Positions 2,670 through 12,061 of a DNA stretch of 64,000 nt are shown piece after piece. Numbering within the stretch: the stretch's first letter is position 1; every line of letters begins with the position of its first letter. A model generated the notes under the pieces. It ran no database searches. It had not been told where the DNA came from and was given only the letters and a program-made list of their open reading frames with translations. The stretch lies in the NCBI GenBank assembly GCA_963734545.1, contig CAVTHO010000007.1, forward strand, positions 640,001 through 704,000. The letters are read 5' to 3'. A program made the translations under genes and the position numbers. The DNA comes from an uncultured Spirochaetota bacterium. GTDB taxonomy: Bacteria; Spirochaetota; Spirochaetia; SZUA-6; Fen-1364.

Positions 2670-4595
2670 GTGATGGGAAGCACTGACTACGCGGCCCTGT
2701 TCGCAGAGGCGCTCGAGGCCGGCAGGAAAAGAGACTATCCGCGGTCCATCGAGCTGCTGACACGTATCGTGGGAAGCACGGACCGCTTTCCACAGGCCCT
2801 TCTTTACCTGGGCCGCGCCTATCACGCCATCGGCGACTATTCACGCGCCGCGCAGGCGTTGAACTTCTACCTCCGCGGCAGGCCTGACTCCGTGCCGGGA
2901 AATTTCTTCCTCGGGCGCGCGTACATCGCACTGGAAGCGTATCCTGCCGCGGTCCGCCACCTGAGACGCGCCGTCGAGGGCGACGCCGGCTTTGCCCCCG
3001 CCTATGGACTCCTCGGGCTCGCATGTCTGAAGGCGCGAAGACCCGACAAGGCCATCTGGTGGTTCGCAAAGTCACTCGCCATCGATCCACAGAACAAGCG
3101 TCTGCAGGTCGGCTACCTCAATACCGCCCTGGTGCTGGCCATACGGCTCTTCTACCGTGGAGAGCTGATCGATGCCGCCCGACTCTTCACCGAAGTGCTC
3201 GAGCAGAGACGCGCCAGCATCCTCCCCCACTTGTACCTGGCGACGATTTACCGGGAACTTGGCAGGGACAATCTCGCCCTGTACCACATGGACGCCGCTT
3301 CTCAGATCTCGCCGCAGGATCCGTTCCTGCATCTGCAGAAAGCCGTGATCCTGCTCGCACAGGGCGAGAAAGCTTCGGCGGCCGAAGAGATCCGCATCGG
3401 GACGCAGCTCCTCAAGAGCGCCGGCAGTCCGGGAGGATCGCCCGAAGACATCCTCAGGTTCATCACCATCAACCTGTTCAAGGAGAAGCGCTACCGGGAG
3501 ACCGTGTACTACGGCACAAAGCTTCTCAAGGGCGCATACGACGACCCCCAGCTGCACGCGATTGTCGCCGAGGCCTACCGCAACATGGGCGAGCTTCTGA
3601 AGGCGAAGAATCACTATACGCGGGCCATCGAGAAGGATCGCGCGTCCCGAGAGCTCCGGTACGGCCTGCTGGCAGTCCTTTGGGAAAGACGGGAGTTCGA
3701 ACCTCTCCTGTCCGAAGCGGCGCGTATCCTGCAGGCTGACCGGGCCGACGGCCCCGGACGGTATTTCCACAGCCTGGCGCTTTCGCGCACGGGCGCGGCA
3801 ATCGAGCAGGTGCTCGCCGAGCTTCAACAGCAGGTGAAAGCCCGAGGTCCGGACCCCGTGCTCATGGCGGAGCTCGGGGCTGCGTATGTGCGCGCCGGTC
3901 TTCCCGAGCTCGCGGAAGGCTGGTACGTGAGGGTCTTGAAAGTCGCTCCGCCGGACGCGGAGGTCCTCCTGTCCCTCGCCGGAGTGTACAAATCCCTCGG
4001 CAGGCAGGATAGGCGGGGAGAGACATACCGTGCGTACCTCGAGATCCATCCGGAAGACCGCAAGGCGCGCCGCCAGCTCGTGCGCATACTTCTGGAGCTG
4101 GACTCCTTTGCCGATGCCGCCGAGCAGATTGCCATGCTGCTCCCGCTGGAACCGAACAATGTCAAGCTCAAATCGACCCTTGCCGTCTGCTACCGCCGCA
4201 CGGGCAGATTCCCGGAGGCGCTCGTGCTTCTCAAGGACCTTCTCGGAGAGTCTCCGGACTCGCAGGAGCTCATCAAGGCCGCGGTCTTCTGCCTGGACAA
4301 GATGGGGGCACGCGCCGTGGGGGTGCGGGCGCTGGAAAGCTTCATGAAGCAGCACGGGGAGAACCTTTCGCTGATCCTCATGCTCGGAGTGCTCCAGTAC
4401 CAGGCGAGCTCTCTCTCGAAGGCCGCTGAAACCTTCCGCAAGGCACTATCGCTGTCCCCGAAGGACTGGCGTGCCAATCGAAACCTGGGCATGGTCTACA
4501 GGAAAATGGGCAACGATGTATTCGCGGACAAGTTCCTGGCAAAGGCCGCCGAGTACCGCGCCGCGGTGGAGGCGGCCGTGTCCGAGGCGCCCTGA
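2670..4595 (+). CDS. Tetratricopeptide-repeat protein
   Basis: 641 aa with recurrent TPR patterns (LGRAY..G.Y..A, NLGMVYRKMG); start GTG 2670 or ATG 2673. Confidence 0.85.
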   Translation: MMGSTDYAALFAEALEAGRKRDYPRSIELLTRIVGSTDRFPQALLYLGRAYHAIGDYSRAAQALNFYLRGRPDSVPGNFFLGRAYIALEAYPAAVRHLRRAVEGDAGFAPAYGLLGLACLKARRPDKAIWWFAKSLAIDPQNKRLQVGYLNTALVLAIRLFYRGELIDAARLFTEVLEQRRASILPHLYLATIYRELGRDNLALYHMDAASQISPQDPFLHLQKAVILLAQGEKASAAEEIRIGTQLLKSAGSPGGSPEDILRFITINLFKEKRYRETVYYGTKLLKGAYDDPQLHAIVAEAYRNMGELLKAKNHYTRAIEKDRASRELRYGLLAVLWERREFEPLLSEAARILQADRADGPGRYFHSLALSRTGAAIEQVLAELQQQVKARGPDPVLMAELGAAYVRAGLPELAEGWYVRVLKVAPPDAEVLLSLAGVYKSLGRQDRRGETYRAYLEIHPEDRKARRQLVRILLELDSFADAAEQIAMLLPLEPNNVKLKSTLAVCYRRTGRFPEALVLLKDLLGESPDSQELIKAAVFCLDKMGARAVGVRALESFMKQHGENLSLILMLGVLQYQASSLSKAAETFRKALSLSPKDWRANRNLGMVYRKMGNDVFADKFLAKAAEYRAAVEAAVSEAP

Positions 4596-4626
4596 AGGCG
4601 TGGAGCGCGGGGCCGTTCGGCTGCCG

Positions 4627-4660
4627 AAAAAAAACGGCCGGGTCTTTGTTCCCCGGCCGT
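4627..4660 (-). terminator. Rho-independent terminator of the cfpA operon
   Basis: Stem ACGGCCGGG/CCCGGCCGT followed on the minus strand by a T run (A8 at 4627-4634 on plus). Confidence 0.8.
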
Positions 4661-4683
4661 CTTCTCGAAAGCTATGAACGATT

Positions 4684-7326
4684 CTAGGCGCCGGCCTTCT
4701 CCAGGTTGATCTGGGCAATTGCCAGCTTGGAAAGAGGTACCTGATAGGGAGAGCAGGACACATAGTCCAGTCCGGCTTCCATGCAGAAGCGGATGTTGTC
4801 CGGGATTGCTCCATGCTCCCCGCACAGTCCCACCTCGAGATCCGGCCGGGTCATCTTGCCTCTCTTCACGGCCATTGCAATCAGCTCCTTCACCTGCGGA
4901 TTCAGGTACTGGAAGGGATTGCCTTCCAGAAGGTCGAACTGGGTGTAGTCCGGCATGAAAGTGTTGAAATCATCCCGCGAGAGACCAATGGTCGTCTGGG
5001 TGAGATCGTTGGTGCCGAATGAGAAGAACTGGGCGTAGTGTGCAAGCTGGTCCGCGCCGAGCGCGGCGGCAGGCAGCTCCACCATGGTGCCGATCTTGTA
5101 GGGAGCAGCTTTTGCCTTGAAAGACGCCCTGACATCGCGTTCGACGTCCGATAGCCCGCGGATCTGTTTTCCCTCGATCTTCTTCCCATAGATGATGAGC
5201 TTCAGCTCATTCTCGTTCATGATGATCGGGATCATGATCTCGGGCTCCACGCGCACCCCTTCCTTCTTCAGGGTGTAGACGGCCTCGAAGATCGCACGGA
5301 CCTGCATCTCATAGATCTCGGGATAGGAGACGGCGATGCGGCAGCCGCGATGCCCCAGCATCGGGTTGAACTCGTGCATCGATTCGCTGCGCAGCCTCAC
5401 GTCCTTCTCCGTCAGCCTCTTGGCGCCCTTTTTCCCCGCGTTGAGATAGCGCATGAAGCGCTCCAGCTCCTGGTCGTTGTGAGGCAGGAATTCGTGCAGG
5501 GGGGCGTCGAGCAGCCGGATGATCACCGGATAGCCTTCCATGATCTTCAGCAGCTTGTAGAAGTCGGCTTTCTGCATGGGGAGAAGCTTGGCGAGGGCTC
5601 TCTTGCGCTCTTCCGACGAGTCGGAAAGAACCATCTCGCGGAACACGTTGATCCGTTTCTCATCGAAGAACATGTGCTCCGTGCGGACGAGCCCGATTCC
5701 TTTCGCGCCGAACTTGCGCGCAAGAGCGGCGTCCCGCGGTTTGTCCGCGTTCGCCCGCACGTGGAAATCCGGCACGTACTTCTCCACCAGGGCGAGGAAC
5801 TCGAGCATGCCCGACTCCTCGGGATCCGGTTCGATGAGCTCCGCCTTGCCGATGTACATCGACGGGGCGCCGTAGAATGGCACATTGAGGGTGATGTAGT
5901 CCCCTTCCTTGATGACATAGCTGCCCACCGTGGCACGGTTGCCCTTGATCTTCATGTCGGGCTTCACGAGGGACACCTTGCCGTACTGCCGCGCAACAAC
6001 CGATGCGTGGGCAGAATAGCCGCCCTCCGTGGAAAGGACGCCGGTGGCGACCTCGATTGCCTTCACGTCCTCCGCAAACGACGAAACCAGGCACAGGATC
6101 AGCTTCGTGTCCAGGCCCTTCTGCTGCGCGAGCTTGTGCGCCTCGAGAAGCCCGTCCGTCGTGAAGTACACTCTGCCGATGGCGGCGCCGGGCGCCCCCG
6201 TGATGCCGCCGGTAAGGACCGGCATGCCCTTGACAGTCGCGAAATCGATGATGGGATGGAGGATCTCGTTGAGCTGGCCCGGCTTGATCTGTTTGACCAC
6301 GTAGCGGTCATCCACGACCTTCCGCGAGTAGAGATCCAGAAGAAGCCGGATGTCCGCCTGGGTCGACTTGGTCATCACGGAGCGCTGGTCGATCAGCCAG
6401 AGGCGCTTGTTCTCCACGGTGAATCGAATGGAGCGGATTTCCTTGAAGTGGTCTTCCACCTTGTGCGCGATCTTTTCGAGCTCCGCGTGGTAGTTCTTCG
6501 AGAAATTGGCGATGTTGGAACCGCTCGTGCCGATGGCATTGAACTTGTTCTGGTAGTATTCGCCCTGGATTTCCTTGTCTCCGGTGACGATGTTGCGGGT
6601 GTAGAACTGACCGTTGGATGAATCCTTCCCGTAGTTTCCGTACACCATGGGCTGAATCAACAGCGCCGTGTCTTCCTGGTTCTGATCGGTGATGGCCAGG
6701 AGGTGGCTGATCCGCGTGAGGGCAATCTCGAGCTGATCGAAGGGATCCATGAAGTAGCCCTTGGGAAGCATTGCCTTGTAGCGCTCGATGCTCGCCTTGC
6801 GCTTCTTTGCGTCCATCTCCGAGCTGAGCTCCACGTCGAGCTCCTTGATGGCCTGCTTCAGGGATTTGGCCTCCTTCTCCTTGTTTTCCAGCTCCGCGAT
6901 GGCCATCTCGATTTCCAGGCTGCCGCGCGTCAGGAATTGAAGCTCGTGCCAGCCGAAGTTTTCCCCGACGAACCGGTTGAATCCGGGGAGCGTTTTGTCG
7001 GTGAGGCCGAAATTGTGCATTGTCGGGTACGATGCGATCACGAGGTTCGGGCTGACGACGATCTTCACGAGCATCGGATTTTCCGCGTCGCCGAAGGCCT
7101 TGCCGGTGAGCTTTGCCAGCCGATCGAACCAGGGGCGGAGCGCGCCCCAGATGTCGAAATCCTCAAGATGCGCCGCCACATCGGCGTCGATGATGAACCC
7201 GGGAAGTATGGGGAGGTCGAGGTCGGCGAGCTCCATGGCCAGACGTCCCCGAATGCCGATCCTCTCCAGGATCGGTGGTTTCACGTTCGCTTCGCCCTGG
7301 TCAAAGAAGTGGATGTTCTTCTTCAT
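4684..7326 (-). CDS. ppdK: Pyruvate phosphate dikinase homologue with degenerate ATP-grasp domain
   Basis: Collinear with PPDK: GGYSAHAS phospho-His loop, GLVRTEHMFF, EFNPMLGHRGCR, FSFGTNDLTQ, GLCGEHG. N-terminal nucleotide-binding residues are substituted (see findings). Confidence 0.9.
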   Translation of the reverse strand: MKKNIHFFDQGEANVKPPILERIGIRGRLAMELADLDLPILPGFIIDADVAAHLEDFDIWGALRPWFDRLAKLTGKAFGDAENPMLVKIVVSPNLVIASYPTMHNFGLTDKTLPGFNRFVGENFGWHELQFLTRGSLEIEMAIAELENKEKEAKSLKQAIKELDVELSSEMDAKKRKASIERYKAMLPKGYFMDPFDQLEIALTRISHLLAITDQNQEDTALLIQPMVYGNYGKDSSNGQFYTRNIVTGDKEIQGEYYQNKFNAIGTSGSNIANFSKNYHAELEKIAHKVEDHFKEIRSIRFTVENKRLWLIDQRSVMTKSTQADIRLLLDLYSRKVVDDRYVVKQIKPGQLNEILHPIIDFATVKGMPVLTGGITGAPGAAIGRVYFTTDGLLEAHKLAQQKGLDTKLILCLVSSFAEDVKAIEVATGVLSTEGGYSAHASVVARQYGKVSLVKPDMKIKGNRATVGSYVIKEGDYITLNVPFYGAPSMYIGKAELIEPDPEESGMLEFLALVEKYVPDFHVRANADKPRDAALARKFGAKGIGLVRTEHMFFDEKRINVFREMVLSDSSEERKRALAKLLPMQKADFYKLLKIMEGYPVIIRLLDAPLHEFLPHNDQELERFMRYLNAGKKGAKRLTEKDVRLRSESMHEFNPMLGHRGCRIAVSYPEIYEMQVRAIFEAVYTLKKEGVRVEPEIMIPIIMNENELKLIIYGKKIEGKQIRGLSDVERDVRASFKAKAAPYKIGTMVELPAAALGADQLAHYAQFFSFGTNDLTQTTIGLSRDDFNTFMPDYTQFDLLEGNPFQYLNPQVKELIAMAVKRGKMTRPDLEVGLCGEHGAIPDNIRFCMEAGLDYVSCSPYQVPLSKLAIAQINLEKAGA

Positions 7327-7348
7327 TCTTGTCCTTCCCTTTCAAATA

Positions 7349-8425
7349 TCAGAACAGGTTCAGGATCGCGCCGACTTGCGCCTTGAGGAAAGCCTCGAAC
7401 ATGTGGCTGGCGCCCTGCCGGAGATAACGCTGGAGCTTGGCCACGTCACGGATGTCGTCTCCCGCCACGGCGATCATGATTGCGCTCCCGTGCTTCACCT
7501 TCCCCCATTTGAAGAGGGTGTTGATGTCGTGGATGCGCTCTCCCTCGTAGAATACGTACACGTCGAGGCCCGGGTACTTGGTCGTATAGCTCTGGATGAT
7601 CTTCTTCCACGCCTCCACGTTGCCGTTGTGGAAAAGCTCGTTCGTCACGGGAATGGAGTACATGGGAGTCATCTTCTTCGGGGCGCCGGAAGGAGCCGCG
7701 GCCGCCGGAGCGGCCGCGGGCGCCTGTGCGACCGGGGCTTGCGGGAACGCGGCACCGGAGGCTGGCACAGCCGCGGCGGCAAGCGCCAGGTCCGCTGCCG
7801 CTGCAGCGCGGGAAGGGCGTTCCTTTGCGGCCTTTCGGGCTCCCCTCGCGGGTGCGGGAGCAGGAGGGGGTGCCGGCTGCTTCTTCTGGACGAACTTGCC
7901 CTTTGTCAGCGCGGCAGGCGTCTTGAGCCTGGCCCCCTCGATGAGCGCGATGAAGAGTGATATCCCATCCTGGTATTTCTTGTCGCCGTCTGTTTCACCA
8001 AAGGCGCCGGCAAAGACCGTTACCAGCTCGTTTTTCTTCAGGATCCTCACGCCGTCCCAGTGCGAGCGGTTCTTGGGGTTCACCACCACCATGCCGAGCT
8101 CGGGATGGGAGTAGGCGACTACCATGTCGATGGCGCGCCAGGTCGCCACCGTCGCGGTGAGGGCGTCGAAGTCCTCGAAGTTCTCCGCGAGGTTGTGGGA
8201 TCGGCACGCGTAATGATACTTGTCCACCAGGAGTGCGTTCAGCGTGGGAGGCACCTGCCTCGGCTCGATCGTTTTGTCGGCAAGGCACTCGCTCAGCGTG
8301 TCCGCCAGGTTGCGCCTGCGCTCGAACTCCCCGATGACCTGTGAAATGAACTTGAAGTGCTTGAGCGAGCGGTTGAAACCTTCCCGCGTGCTGAGCTCTT
8401 CAAATGCATGGAGTTGTTCCGCCAT
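7349..8425 (-). CDS. Hypothetical protein with C-terminal HPr-like domain and Pro/Ala-rich linker
   Basis: 358-aa ORF between cfpA and the PPDK homologue, with SD AAAGGGG; the C-terminal region aligns by eye with HPr. Confidence 0.75.
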   Translation of the reverse strand: MAEQLHAFEELSTREGFNRSLKHFKFISQVIGEFERRRNLADTLSECLADKTIEPRQVPPTLNALLVDKYHYACRSHNLAENFEDFDALTATVATWRAIDMVVAYSHPELGMVVVNPKNRSHWDGVRILKKNELVTVFAGAFGETDGDKKYQDGISLFIALIEGARLKTPAALTKGKFVQKKQPAPPPAPAPARGARKAAKERPSRAAAAADLALAAAAVPASGAAFPQAPVAQAPAAAPAAAAPSGAPKKMTPMYSIPVTNELFHNGNVEAWKKIIQSYTTKYPGLDVYVFYEGERIHDINTLFKWGKVKHGSAIMIAVAGDDIRDVAKLQRYLRQGASHMFEAFLKAQVGAILNLF

Positions 8426-8446
8426 CTGTCTTTCCCCTTTGACCGT

Positions 8447-8482
8447 AAATGAAAATGGTGACCCCCGGGAGGGTCACCATTT
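8447..8482 (-). terminator. Intra-operon hairpin/terminator after cfpA
   Basis: Perfect 12-bp stem AAATGGTGACCC/GGGTCACCATTT (8453-8482), 6-nt loop, ending in TTTTCATTT on the minus strand. Confidence 0.8.
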
Positions 8483-8497
8483 GATTCCCCGATTTCT

Positions 8498-10525
8498 TCA
8501 GATTTCTCTCAGCCCGACGTCACCGCCCTTGCGGGGACGACCTCTTGCTGCCTTGGCCGGCCGGCCGCGGCGTCGCGGTGCCACATCGACGACTCCCTGT
8601 CCCGCCGCCTTGGACGACTTGGCGTCCGCTCCGGGAACGTTGAGCATGTCGAGGTATTCGGACTTCGTGGTCTGCGGGGCTGCGGTCTCATCCGGGGTTG
8701 CCGCGAACGACTGCGCGATGTCCGCGCGGACGGTCGAGCGGCGGCGCGAGAACGAGGCGAATGCCGCGTCCTGGAACCCTTTCGACACCCCGTAGAGGAA
8801 CTCATTGAGGACGTTCGCCATGCCGTCCAGCGTGGCTTTCTTCCTCTTGATGGAAGTGATATTCACGTCCAGCAGGAGGCCCGGCTGGATGTGGTACGGA
8901 TTGATCAGGTACTCGAAGGCGAGGAACTGCTTCTCGAGGAACGAAAGGCGCTCCTCCATGACGCGGCGCTGGATCGGGTAGCGGTAGCCGTAGAGCTTCT
9001 GCAGCTTGTCCCGCATCATGATGATCCGCCGCTTGATCTCGTCCTTCTCCGCGATATAGGTGCGGTTCATGCGCTCCACGTCCGTGTCGCCCGAGCGGAC
9101 AAACGTCACCTCGCTCCATGACTTCTCGATGTCCTCGTACAGCGGGTCCCCTGTCTTCGCCTTGATTCTCCGCTTGATCTTTCCCTTGAGTCTCTTGGCA
9201 AGGTCATTGAAATCGACCACGCCCTTCAGGAACTTCGAGTCTTCGTACACCATTTCCAGCACGTCCCAGAGGTGCTGGATCTCGATCTCGAAAGTCTTGG
9301 CCTGTACGTCGTAGGACTTGCGCTCCTCGAGGAGCTGCGCCTGATCGTAGTATTTCAGACGGATTGCATAGCGCTCGTCCGGCAGGTGGTCAAAGTCGGT
9401 GTCCTCGTACTCGCGCAGGACCAGCTCGCGGGCATTCTTGAGGTTCTCCACGTGCTGGTAGCCCATCTTGGAGGTATCCAGGATCGAGGTGATCGAGTTG
9501 ATTGCCGTGTTGAATCCGCGGTTCCTGATGTTCTCGATGTCGATGATTCTCTTCAGATTCTCGCGGATGTTCACCGGGTCGTACTCTTCAGGATCGATCT
9601 CTGCCCGGAGGCCTTCGACCTTGTCCATCAGGCTCTTTGCGAAGTAGGAATACCGCTGGGACTTCGGGTCATCCTTCTCGTCGGAAGTGAACTTCTCCAC
9701 CCTCTTCATCTTCTCGAAGAGGATTTCGCCGTCACTCAGCTCTTCCCTTCCCTCGTCGATGACCTGGTCCTTGAGCTTCTCGATCTCCTTGTCAATGAGG
9801 TCCGTGATGTTCTTGGAGATCATGTCCTTGATCAGGAACTCGACCGTAACCTGATAGTGGAAGATGGGGCTGATGAGCTCCGAGTCGAGGATATTGACGG
9901 AGAGCTTCACATCCGTGACCGTCTTGGGCTTGTTGGGGTTGTCCTTGAACGAGCACTTCACGATCGAATACGCGTTTTCTCCGCGAATGAACGCACCGAC
10001 GTCCGTCTTCTGCCGCAGCAGGGAGTTGGTGAGGTTCTCAAGGTCGTTCACGCCCCTCTGAATATGGCCCTGCAAGTGGCCGTACATGTTGACGATTGAT
10101 TTCTCGATTTCGCCCGTATTGAACTTGTCAATGCCGCCGACCTGGTCCAGAAGCGCCGCGATCTCCTTGGGAGTGTAGCGCGCGAGAGACTTCATCTCTT
10201 CCTTGTCTATGAAGTTCCTCACCTTCTTCACCATTTCGTCTTCCGACGTGACGATGAAGCGGTTCATCATGTTCTGGTAGTTCTGGTTGAAGTAGTTGTA
10301 TAGCTTCTCCTTGATGCCGCCCATGATGTCGAGTTTTTCAGCGACCTCCTTGGGCAACTTGGAGGTAATGTGATTCATCACTTTGTCTACTTCTTCGCTC
10401 ATCAGGAGGTCAACCTCGGCCTGCTGATCACGGAACTCCTGGGCTAGCGAGTTTCGCGACCCGACCGCGCTCGGCTTTTCCGGGTGGAACACATTCGGGC
10501 TTTTCGGAAGGTCAATGGCAGCCAT
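8498..10525 (-). CDS. cfpA: Cytoplasmic filament protein A
   Basis: N-terminus [29 protein letters not shown] matches treponemal CfpA as I recall it; 675 aa, coiled-coil rich; SD AAGGAG. Confidence 0.93.
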
Positions 10526-10608
10526 AGAAGTCTCCTTTTCTCAGTTTGTTCAAACCTAGTAAACCATAAAAGACTATCTCTGTAAAGCACATTTTTTTTC
10601 TCTCTTCC

Positions 10609-10637
10609 ATTTTACCCACATTTGGTGCATCCTACAA
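10609..10637 (-). promoter_or_regulatory. Sigma70-like promoter for cfpA in an AT-rich divergent intergenic region
   Basis: Minus strand TTGTAG, 17 nt, TAAAAT; a weaker TTTACA-17-TTTACT pair preceded by an A tract lies closer to the gene. Confidence 0.55.
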
Positions 10638-10663
10638 GTACTTTATTCCAAAAGGGGGGCCTT

Positions 10664-12061
10664 ATGGGAGCCTGGAAACGCTTTCTAGCCGCTCTTGCGC
10701 TGTGTGCCGTCCTGGCGTCGCCCGTTGTCGCGGACGTCAGGAAGGACAACATCGACGTGATCATCGCCCTGGACAAGTCCCTCTCCATGGAGAACAAGAT
10801 AGGCGGTGTCAGGGAGTGGGTCAACTCCTCGATAATCGATCAACTCCTGATCCCGGGGGATACTCTCGTCGTCGTGGCGTTCTACGGGAAAGCAGACGTC
10901 ATCATTTCCCATACAGTCAAGGATAATGCCGATAAGAAGGCCCTTCAAGCCATCATCTCGAAGATTAGAGGGAATGGACGTTTTACCGATATTGGCAATG
11001 CGCTCGATGTCGTGCGGGCACAAGTGACTGACCGACAGAGCGATGGGCGGGAGAAGTACATTCTTCTCCTCACGGATGGGATACAGGAAGCGCCTCCATC
11101 GAGCAAGTACTACACCAAGGACGGCAAGTTCAACCACGAGTTCCTCGCCAATACAAAGACGATCCAGGAGAAGGGCTGGAAGATCATGATCCTGGGAATC
11201 GGCACTGACACTGCGGCAAAGGACCTCGCCCACGAGTTGAAGGGCACGTACAACGAAGTCACCGAGAGCGCGACAGCAGGCTCACTGGCGGAGACAACCG
11301 GAGCCTTCTTCGGCACCATCACCGCGGAAGGCGGTGTGCGTGTCGGCGGCGTATCCGCCGACGGCTCGAGCAAGCTCGCCCTCACGCTCAAGGCGTCCGG
11401 GCTGACGAATGACGCGAGCATTACGCTGGACTCCGTCACGGCCCGGATCGGAAACCGCGAGATCCCCAATGTCCTTCCCGCCCCTTTCAAATTCGGCGTC
11501 AAAAAGGAGGGGCCCACGCATGTCAGCGTGCCATTGCGATTCCCCACGGATCTGCCGCAGGGCCCTGCCACCGGTGCGCTTACCTTCTCCTTCGGCTCGG
11601 GAGCCGCCTTCTCCCCTGCAGAGGCAAATGTCTCGTTCGTCGTGAACAACTGGCTGCAGAACAATCTCATTCTCCTCATCTGCGCGGCGGTCATCGTTCT
11701 TCTTCTCGTGGCGTTCCTGGTCATGGTGGTCTGGCGCCTGACGCGGGGAAAGCCTCTTCAGTTCGCTTTGACAATCGACGGGGAGACCGTGGGCGAAGAT
11801 CCCGTTTCCCTGTCTGCAGGCCATGAGATGTATCTCAACGAAAACGCCGGCGTGTTCTCCCTCGTCGCCCACAGAAACGCCAAGTCTCTGGCCCGGTTCA
11901 CCGTCAAGGACGCCAAGCTTCTTCTCGGTGTGCTCAAAGAGGATCGATTCCCCAAGCTGAAGGAGGTGCCGCCCGACGCGCGAGGACATACATTCGTCGT
12001 CCGCTCGGAGAAAGGCGGAAACCTGTCGTTGAAGGTCCAGTCGAAGGAAAGGACGAAGTAG
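10664..12061 (+). CDS. Exported, membrane-anchored von Willebrand factor A domain protein
   Basis: Signal peptide; MIDAS motif DKSLS; TDIGNAL; LLLTDG; internal TM helix LILLICAAVIVLLLVAFLVMVVW. Confidence 0.87.
   Translation: MGAWKRFLAALALCAVLASPVVADVRKDNIDVIIALDKSLSMENKIGGVREWVNSSIIDQLLIPGDTLVVVAFYGKADVIISHTVKDNADKKALQAIISKIRGNGRFTDIGNALDVVRAQVTDRQSDGREKYILLLTDGIQEAPPSSKYYTKDGKFNHEFLANTKTIQEKGWKIMILGIGTDTAAKDLAHELKGTYNEVTESATAGSLAETTGAFFGTITAEGGVRVGGVSADGSSKLALTLKASGLTNDASITLDSVTARIGNREIPNVLPAPFKFGVKKEGPTHVSVPLRFPTDLPQGPATGALTFSFGSGAAFSPAEANVSFVVNNWLQNNLILLICAAVIVLLLVAFLVMVVWRLTRGKPLQFALTIDGETVGEDPVSLSAGHEMYLNENAGVFSLVAHRNAKSLARFTVKDAKLLLGVLKEDRFPKLKEVPPDARGHTFVVRSEKGGNLSLKVQSKERTK

Follow-up and report, generated by a model that had tools for sequence, protein, structure and literature searches.

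A conserved spirochaete protein encoded between the cytoplasmic filament gene cfpA and a PPDK-like gene is predicted, from structural models, to contain two HPr-like folds with a disordered linker between them, and a putative phospho-acceptor function of its C-terminal fold is plausible, if only tentatively held. The gene, called X here, occupies positions 7349..8425 of the window (the whole 64,000-nucleotide stretch of DNA that was analysed) on the minus strand, as do all features described below, and its open reading frame and translation give a 358-amino-acid protein of the TP_0747 family. The peptide quoted in the first-pass annotation corresponds to residues 255–335 of this minus-strand frame, and the flagged stretch is the C-terminal third of the gene X product. 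A separate gene starting from the ATG at 7672 was considered and rejected, because the open frame extends upstream as far as 8425 and the homologues span its full length; this ATG is the codon for the internal Met252.

Homologues of X numbered 1959 at E ≤ 1e-3, and among the matches listed 120 of 120 were full-length (about 340–390 amino acids) and carried PF27497.1 (TP_0747_N), with 56–94% identity to X and mostly 100% coverage. X was 94% identical to a cluster carrying PF27497.1, with length and layout alike, and the three best Atlas clusters were all named TP_0747_N, with PF27497.1 in 92–98% of their members. PF27497 was assigned to X through these homologues; the Pfam release that was searched lacks that model, and the entry itself describes the N-terminal domain only. 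Sequence comparison places X in the TP_0747 family, whose N-terminal domain it carries, and its gene lies between cfpA and the PPDK-like gene. TDE0843 of T. denticola, encoded between cfpA and the PPDK gene, is on that ground the likely X orthologue. A literature search on TP_0747-family names found no paper on function, and TDE0843 was found only in a microarray table.

The C-terminal HPr-like fold (7391..7663, residues 255–345) was modelled as a beta-alpha-beta-beta-alpha-beta-alpha arrangement plus a short extra helix, with a pLDDT of 94.8 and a pTM of 0.88 for the domain model. In Foldseek, HPr/Crh filled the first six rows and 32 of the 44 matches listed, with no match reaching E ≤ 1e-3, while in a structural search of 48,161 chains HPr ranked top by more than 1 Z unit above the next family, with the whole HPr chain covered; two different structure aligners agreed on HPr as the best match. 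The fold proposed in the first-pass annotation was thus upheld by structure search, HPr/Crh being the best PDB matches of the domain model, and an HPr-like fold is supported at the level of the model. In the predicted structure the domain is the open-faced sandwich of HPr, NPr and Crh, with its elements in matching order over the whole HPr chain. It differs from HPr in a helix A about 5 residues longer, an extra C-terminal helix, a conserved tail and its setting in a 358-amino-acid protein with a second such fold. The tail (7352..7390, residues 346–358) ends in ...LNLF; of 83 homologues, stand-alone forms included, at least 90% keep L357 and F358. The domain as a whole is almost invariant among 15 homologues of 59–81% overall identity.

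The N-terminal half begins with a helical head of four helices (8219..8401, residues 9–69; DSSP on the full-length model), followed by the second HPr-like fold (7928..8212, residues 72–166). In its own structural search HPr was again first among 48,161 chains, more than 1 Z unit over the next family and with the whole chain covered. The residue before helix A in this fold is Asp85, not His, and NPKN at 116–119 is invariant; because this second fold of X is without the His, the HPr-like fold in the X family also serves something other than His phosphotransfer. Comparison of the two folds with each other gave a BLASTP E of 0.087 and an hhalign P of 0.26 in the correct register, sequence values that are suggestive of an internal duplication. 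The intervening linker (7676..7888, residues about 180–250) is Ala/Pro-rich, length-variable and predicted to be disordered, with pLDDT below 50 at residues 208–227, no predicted secondary structure over 175–255, and gaps and variability in the alignment of X homologues.

Sequence comparison of the C-terminal domain with HPr gave a different result from the structural search. PF00381 had no match at E ≤ 1 to the 358-amino-acid protein, which had no Pfam match at all; as anticipated, standard HPr profiles are blind to the domain, and X does not score above the PF00381 cut-off. Searched against the whole genome, PF00381 matched only the canonical HPr (contig 5, 108.5 bits), an ordinary HPr gene that adjoins HprK elsewhere in the genome. 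BLASTP of the domain against this HPr aligned 11 residues at E 0.40, no HPr was found when PDB sequences were searched with a profile of the domain, and hhalign against 30 spirochaete HPrs gave P 0.057 and a probability of 0.95%. An NCBIfam search of X returned only low-complexity linker noise (SrfA, DnaX) and nothing for the C-terminal domain, and a protein Atlas feature search with residues 249–358 gave no usable match. The sequence likeness of the domain to HPr is not above chance by these comparisons; the parallel with the HPr consensus claimed in the first-pass annotation failed by Pfam, BLASTP, PDB profile search and hhalign alike, and likeness to HPr exceeds chance only in the predicted structure. 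In the hhalign register, residues 34–96 of the domain lie against 26–86 of HPr; the second and third segments of the earlier segment-by-segment alignment have this same register, whereas the first, in which 7 letters were set against 8, is one residue out. The absence of the ARP motif and of Ser46 was confirmed. In HPr the active-site His is followed by Arg17 and Pro18 (H-A-R-P), and X reads H266-N-G-N. Ser46 is the regulatory site at the start of helix B in Gram-positive and spirochaete-type HPr; hhalign set Asp300 opposite to it, in a column that, across 83 sequences, has D 37 times and N 32 times.

The X product is called spirochaete-only; homologues of the domain do exist as stand-alone forms, the named members of which belong to SAR324/Deltaproteobacteria. 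In 22 metagenome loci of stand-alone homologues no CfpA or PPDK-like match was seen, and neither a PEP enzyme nor CfpA was found at the stand-alone loci; in the 5 loci scanned, the domain gene was flanked by an AICARFT/IMPCHase-family gene and a UbiE-type methyltransferase gene. Such neighbours would suit a chance resemblance, in which the domain is a common two-layer alpha/beta sandwich, its HPr ranking is meaningless and its role, an unrelated one, is common to it and the stand-alone homologues, as would the non-significance of every sequence comparison with HPr and the lack of a Foldseek match at E ≤ 1e-3. This reading is quite improbable, given that for each of two separate domains of X HPr comes first among 48,161 chains and is covered in full, that two different aligners agree, that the hhalign alignments, weak as they are, have the register expected from the structures, and that the neighbouring gene comes from the one enzyme superfamily that phosphorylates HPr.

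The His codon had been placed correctly: CAC at 7628..7630, read 7630-7628 on the minus strand, encodes His266, the residue directly before helix A. DSSP assigned helix A to residues 19–35 of the domain model and 267–283 of the full-length model, and His266 stands immediately before it in both, as the active-site His15 does at the N-terminal end of helix A in HPr. His266 would thus be the equivalent of His15, by secondary-structure register and not by superposed coordinates. The motif V(T/S)NELFH(N/Y)GNVEAW was present in 87/87 cassette loci and 12/12 phylum loci, so that invariance of the His among orthologues held for 99/99 spirochaete loci; outside the phylum it did not, the His being kept in 69 of 83 diverse homologues and absent from 14, namely 10 of the 11 stand-alone forms and 4 full-length proteins. 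After the His, G268 was kept in 75/83 and N269 in 79/83 homologues. Because 14/83 homologues, including 10/11 stand-alone forms, are without it, the domain can function without the His, and its invariance is not special per se, because in close relatives the domain varies at hardly any position. Second copies of X in genomes G019 and G026 lie outside the cassette and retain the His; they do not discriminate between the readings considered here. The residues that spirochaetes conserve and the stand-alone homologues do not are those of the loop between beta1 and helix A, with the His, and LFKWGKVK at helix B. The partner-binding face of HPr is made up of the His loop/helix A and helix B regions, and the most constrained regions of the X domain, the His loop and helix B, resemble it in this respect.

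The gene order in the window is cfpA - X - PPDK-like, all on the minus strand. Cytoplasmic filament protein CfpA is encoded at 8498..10525, 72 nt upstream of X (NCBIfam NF040882, 1165 bits against a cut-off of 500), and the PPDK paralogue of 880 amino acids at 4684..7326, 22 nt downstream. The PPDK-like gene was directly downstream of X in 80 of 80 related loci, and seven more distant metagenome loci had a like cassette order, two of them ending at a contig edge. Among 301 genomes, X was found in 106, CfpA in 107 and the PPDK-like enzyme in 103; of the 109 phylum genomes that have at least one of the three genes, 100 have all three. A sigma-70-like promoter match, weak evidence as a consensus match alone, lies upstream of cfpA at 10796..10824 and is the single such match in 4400–10900; no terminator-like sites were found on the minus strand between the three cassette genes. 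In T. denticola, TDE0842 (cfpA), TDE0843 (hypothetical) and TDE0844 (PPDK) are listed as co-repressed (PMC3914990, Table 5). X and the PPDK-like enzyme appear to act together.

Linkage to cfpA bears on a reading in which the C-terminal domain binds CfpA or another ribbon component, its HPr likeness being a structural heirloom with no tie to enzyme chemistry, and in which another part of X, or nothing, contacts the PPDK-like protein. cfpA was directly upstream of X in 76/80 loci, the other 4 being without upstream DNA; CfpA and X occurred together in 105 of the 108 genomes with either; and the C-terminal domain and CfpA evolve at similarly slow rates (identity across the 80 loci was 68–98% for CfpA, against 52–96% for the PPDK-like enzyme). 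The title of Izard et al. 2004 reportedly speaks of bridging and anchoring components of the filaments. Against this, genus g73 and genome G079 have cfpA elsewhere and X and the PPDK-like gene still adjacent, and we regard a filament-binding role for this domain as distinctly unlikely. The converse split (cfpA and X adjacent, PPDK-like gene apart) was not noticed in the genomes checked, which were a part of the set.

The PPDK-like enzyme scored 664.8 bits against TIGR01828 (pyruvate, phosphate dikinase), below the equivalog cut-off of 843.45, with 510 bits to maize PPDK and 113 bits to the enzyme I model TIGR01417. The adjacent enzyme was rightly taken as PEP-utilising: it retains the phospho-His motif (His440, invariant in 37/37 sequences) the PEP-domain motifs RTEHMFF and GLCGEHGA, and the motif GGYSAHASVVARQYGK. 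The ATP-grasp motifs were not intact. In alignments to 1vbg and 1dik, and to the genome's own canonical PPDK, the motifs GGKG, VRSxxxxSMPGMM(D/E)T, GEDVVAGIRTP and D-x-E..Q-x-R, present in maize, Clostridium and the genome's own second, canonical PPDK, were replaced in that order by GIRG, VVSPNLVIASYPT, a deletion and S-I-R..D-Q-R. This state, with the His and PEP motifs kept and the ATP-grasp motifs lost, was conserved in 69 PPDK-like sequences. From the motif loss and the roles of the residues concerned, the ATP-grasp domain is predicted to be dead. In PPDK, Lys22 reportedly contacts the ATP gamma-phosphate (PMC4844700). Open frames of the PPDK-like gene reach 965–980 amino acids in some lineages; a fusion of X with the enzyme was considered for these frames and rejected, tblastn identifying an insertion of about 110 amino acids inside the N-terminal domain of the enzyme. 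Complex prediction with the PPDK-like enzyme (880 amino acids, 37-row alignment) and the C-terminal domain (110 amino acids, 83 rows) gave 0.00 against a mark of 0.32 and was counted neither way.

An enzyme with a dead nucleotide site and a live PEP-to-His half-reaction would need a new acceptor, and the HPr-like domain may be that acceptor. Docking of X on the PPDK-like enzyme and HPr-like acceptance of a phosphoryl group on His266 is the reading tentatively preferred here. PEP would charge His440 of the enzyme, the C-terminal domain of X would dock through its invariant face of His loop, helix A and helix B, and the phosphoryl group would pass from the phosphohistidine at His440 to His266. 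The helical head and the first HPr-like fold may tie the pair to another partner, for which the CfpA filament is the obvious candidate. The full scheme, a hitherto unrecognised PTS-like phosphorelay in many spirochaetes from a PEP-charged PPDK paralogue without a nucleotide site through His266 of the tandem-HPr-fold X protein to the CfpA filament, is unlikely as a whole.

Possible but rather doubtful is the use of the HPr fold purely as a protein-binding module on the PPDK-like enzyme (a regulator, scaffold or tether) that is never phosphorylated, with His266 as one contact among many. The whole domain, not the His alone, is nearly invariant, it has no equivalents of Arg17 or Ser46, the second HPr-like fold of X and the stand-alone homologues do without the His, two globular domains with a linker of about 70 residues are a typical tether layout, and X and the PPDK-like gene stay adjacent where cfpA has moved away. 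On this reading the enzyme, whose His and PEP sites are intact and whose ATP-grasp motifs are lost, would have no acceptor for its phosphoryl group, and it would be left unexplained why the His is kept in 99/99 spirochaete loci and lost where no such enzyme is nearby.

The preferred reading, phosphoryl transfer to His266, has parallels and differences among known systems. As in the HPr system, the X gene adjoins that of a PEP-utilising enzyme with a phosphohistidine domain, and as in the enzyme I–HPr pair, an enzyme with intact PEP and swivel-His domains is encoded beside an HPr-fold protein on one strand. The cassette enzyme is not an enzyme I but a paralogue of PPDK whose ATP-grasp domain is degenerate. 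To our knowledge PPDK lacks the helical subdomain by which enzyme I binds HPr, and the cassette enzyme would likewise be without an EI-type subdomain of this kind. Unlike the PTS, the cassette contains no EII genes, and its enzyme and HPr-fold protein are linked to cfpA. A precedent for turning the swivel-His machinery to a new phosphoryl acceptor is set by rifampin phosphotransferase and other PEPS/PPDK-family enzymes in which the acceptor site has been exchanged (PMC4844700). Enzymes of this type retain their ATP-grasp domain and have exchanged the PEP domain, whereas the cassette enzyme keeps the PEP domain and has a degenerate ATP-grasp site, and the acceptor proposed here is a separate protein. 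A literature search pairing 'HPr-like' with 'pyruvate phosphate dikinase' found nothing related.

CfpA filaments characterise the treponemes and their relatives, and X and the PPDK-like enzyme are two candidate CfpA partners, inherited with cfpA almost without exception. Chromosome condensation, filamentation and lost infectivity are described for a T. denticola cfpA mutant (PMC3398590). The conserved hypothetical protein TP_0747/TDE0843 gains a recognisable predicted fold, an invariant His and a neighbouring enzyme apparently built to charge a His from PEP. The routine annotation of the cassette enzyme as a functional PPDK is called into question, which bears on metabolic models of reduced-genome spirochaetes. 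Should phosphotransfer fail, X would still add to the HPr fold a branch that sequence searches do not see and that occurs twice within a single protein. If the phosphorelay is true, the PEP/pyruvate ratio, and with it the energy state, would be wired to the cell skeleton and division; in small genomes with only the PPDK-like paralogue, for example one of 1.1 Mb in the class, the annotated PPDK would not be a dikinase, and the model of the last step of glycolysis in such genomes would need revision.

The open reading frame at 7349..8425 (358 aa) on the minus strand encodes a TP_0747-family protein. The peptide that the first-pass annotation had proposed as a cryptic HPr-like domain corresponds to residues 255-335, and the histidine codon noted at 7628-7630 is present, encoding His266 (7630-7628, minus strand). 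A separate gene starting at the ATG at 7672 was rejected; as this ATG encodes internal Met252, the flagged stretch is the C-terminal domain of the protein and no independent gene. cfpA (8498..10525, minus strand; 1165 bits on NCBIfam NF040882) ends 72 nt upstream, and a pyruvate phosphate dikinase (PPDK)-like gene (4684..7326, minus strand) starts 22 nt downstream. Scanning the minus strand between the three genes found no terminator-like sites, and the sole promoter-like match on the cassette strand lay upstream of cfpA; this evidence is weak. The cassette is flanked by genes for a TPR protein (2670-4595, plus strand; 26-91% identity across related loci) and a VWA-domain membrane protein (10622-12061, plus strand; 28-84%). 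Since both recur at these places, on the opposite strand, in most of 80 related loci, the conserved block may comprise five genes.

At the level of sequence, the C-terminal domain is not HPr-like. As the first-pass annotation had anticipated for standard HPr profiles, PF00381 did not match the protein at E ≤ 1. Its one match across the whole genome (G000) was an ordinary 88-aa HPr on another contig (108.5 bits; locus L001, G000 C5:390433-393675) with the motifs GMHARPA (His15) and GKSIMG (Ser46). This canonical HPr lies directly downstream of HprK-like and ribosome hibernation-factor-like ORFs, in a regulatory PTS cluster separate from the cassette. BLASTP of the C-terminal domain against the genome's own HPr gave E 0.40, a profile search of PDB sequences with the domain found no HPr, and hhalign against 30 spirochaete HPrs gave a probability of 0.95% and P of 0.057. 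The proposed segment-by-segment parallel with HPr did not rise above chance in these sequence searches, and the hhalign register (domain 34-96 opposite HPr 26-86) was that expected structurally.

By predicted structure, the domain is HPr-like. The AlphaFold2 model, generated from an 83-row alignment (pLDDT 94.8, pTM 0.88), has the order beta-alpha-beta-beta-alpha-beta-alpha plus a short extra helix, which fits the HPr sandwich. Foldseek with this model returned nothing at E ≤ 1e-3; the top six rows were all HPr or Crh, as were 32/44 among the rows listed, and the best match was 2hpr (E 6.6e-3, TM 0.50/0.59, rmsd 3.5 Å). That the fold resemblance is meaningless was considered quite improbable.

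In the domain model and in the full-length model alike, His266 immediately precedes helix A, which we take to be the position of His15 in HPr. The motif V(T/S)NELFH(N/Y)GNVEAW was present in 87/87 Spirochaetota cassette loci, including seven from a deep lineage with CfpA ~40% identical, and in 12/12 loci sampled across the phylum. Among 83 diverse representatives, His266 was kept in 69; the remaining 14 comprised 10 of 11 stand-alone forms, short homologues (108-147 aa) of the C-terminal domain only, and four full-length proteins with Ser, Gln, Asn or Arg at this place. Invariance of the histidine extends to the spirochaete loci and not to the wider set of homologues. The residues following His266 are N-G-N, without an Arg17 equivalent, and Asp or Asn occupies the Ser46 place in homologues, in agreement with the reported absence of the ARP motif and Ser46.

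Source-named stand-alone homologues were from SAR324 or "Deltaproteobacteria" MAGs. When 22 metagenome loci of these forms (L136-L157; for example, L140:5914-6324 and L143:6001-6354) were searched, no CfpA or PPDK-like match was found, and in the five loci scanned these forms lie between genes for an AICARFT/IMPCHase-family protein and a UbiE-type methyltransferase. E271, A272, W273, I276, S279, Y280, K330, L331, L357 and F358 were common to both groups, while conservation of the His loop and of the helix-B stretch LFKWGKVK was confined to the spirochaete group.

The full-length model (pLDDT 86.7) begins with a four-helix head (residues 9-69) and another beta-alpha-beta-beta-alpha-beta-alpha domain (residues 72-166). 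A linker predicted to be disordered (pLDDT below 50 at 208-227) joins these to the C-terminal domain. In this first fold, the residue ahead of helix A is Asp85, not His. Aligned with HPr by hhalign (P 0.011), the first fold has its invariant NPKN (116-119) facing N-x-K-S46 of HPr; between the two folds, the resemblance was weak (BLASTP E 0.087, hhalign P 0.26). Phosphotransfer to His266 is held tentatively, as Arg17 is missing, some homologues lack the His, the first fold has none, and no sequence signal links the domain to HPr. It is nearly as likely that the C-terminal domain is a pseudo-HPr, serving as a docking module independent of phosphorylation.

No model in the Pfam release searched matched the protein. 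A large protein collection contained 1959 homologues, with PF27497, named TP_0747_N in the protein Atlas, on 120/120 among the matches listed; named members were from Spirochaetia, Treponema, Sediminispirochaeta and Marispirochaeta. When 1.84 billion representatives were scanned without a profile, the C-terminal 110 residues matched just 127 proteins at E ≤ 1e-3, indicating a narrow distribution of this domain. Across 15 homologues (59-81% overall identity), the last ~105 residues were almost invariant, the N-terminal half was variable and the Ala/Pro-rich linker changed in length. Second, unlinked copies (33-40% identity, His motif kept) were observed in some genomes, at L165 (G019 C20) and L166 (G026 C262); the former adjoins genes for a 980-aa TPR protein and a DUF2341 protein.

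In 80/80 genome loci, the PPDK-like gene directly followed the TP_0747-family gene on the same strand, and the latter was directly preceded by cfpA in 76/80; in the remaining four, no more than 330 nt of DNA lay upstream. Of 301 phylum genomes sampled, 106 had the TP_0747-family gene, 107 CfpA and 103 the PPDK-like paralogue, which a threshold of E ≤ 1e-190 told from canonical PPDK. Lists compared by hand placed all three in 100/109 genomes with any of them and none in 192; because related genomes are non-independent, this co-occurrence is given as a pattern, with no statistical test. Seven of the nine incomplete sets were in genomes 71-85% complete; in the remainder, CfpA was not found in G115 (97% complete) and only CfpA was found in G341 (93% complete). 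In genus g73 (six genomes) and genome G079, the TP_0747-family and enzyme genes are adjacent, with cfpA on another contig or 4.6 kb off on the opposite strand; family f82 retains all three genes, in dispersed places. Adjacency of cfpA and the TP_0747-family gene with the enzyme elsewhere was not noticed in the genomes checked, which were a part of the set. That the C-terminal domain instead binds CfpA, its usual upstream neighbour, is unlikely. Table 5 of PMC3914990 lists T. denticola TDE0842 (cfpA), TDE0843 (conserved hypothetical) and TDE0844 (putative PPDK) together, as genes that partner species repress.

The PPDK-like enzyme scored 664.8 bits on TIGR01828, under the cut-off of 843, and its PPDK_N match was limited to residues 274-324. 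In alignments to maize and Clostridium symbiosum PPDK, the C-terminal PEP domain was well kept (RTEHMFF, NPMLGHRGCR, FFSFGTNDLTQ, GLCGEHG) and the swivel-domain motif was GGYSAHASVVAR. N-terminal GGKG was replaced by GIRG, VRSxxxxSMPGMMDT by VVSPNLVIASYPT and D-M-E..Q-T-R by S-I-R..D-Q-R, and GEDVVAGIRTP was deleted. The roles of the changed ATP-grasp residues other than Lys22 are presumably those in the Clostridium enzyme literature. Lys22 of PPDK is reported to make contact with the ATP gamma-phosphate (PMC4844700). In 69 cassette enzymes the altered set of ATP-grasp motifs is conserved in its turn, H440 is invariant in 37/37 sequences, and the altered state recurs in a further four members of the class, among them the 1.1-Mb genome G169. 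Judged by these motifs, the enzyme that homology annotates as PPDK is a paralogue in which the ATP-grasp motifs are replaced or deleted and the His and PEP motifs intact. In nine genomes (G099, G171, G086, G123, G239, G219, G111, G192 and G186; for example, locus L134), the frame is 965-980 aa, with an insertion of ~110 aa between residues ~155 and 177 in the N-terminal domain.

The most economical account would be that the TP_0747-family protein and the enzyme form an EI/HPr-like pair assembled from other parts: the enzyme, its nucleotide site lost, would probably charge its own His from PEP, and its partner would supply a domain of HPr fold whose invariant His lies where HPr has its own. Pfam already lists the TP_0747 family as a domain of unknown function, and no paper on it was found in the literature searched by the locus names TP_0747 and TDE0843, a search that did not cover early cfpA papers. 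Going by these searches, there appears to be no published account of the HPr-like character of the two domains, of the nearly obligate association of the three genes or of the enzyme's degenerate nucleotide site.

A canonical second PPDK in the genome (G000 C9:281389-284095) retains all the motifs that are altered in the paralogue (947.7 plus 265.9 bits). It is split into two frames (L119 and L121) overlapping near 283556-283575, owing to a frameshift or else to a fault in the assembly of the genome, which is 89% complete. Genome G063 carries both PPDK types, and G169 (1.1 Mb, C1:810743-816533), G062 and G065 carry the cassette-type enzyme only, scoring 608-677 bits, under the family cut-off. 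These paralogue-only genomes bear on metabolic models that use PPDK for the PEP-to-pyruvate step.
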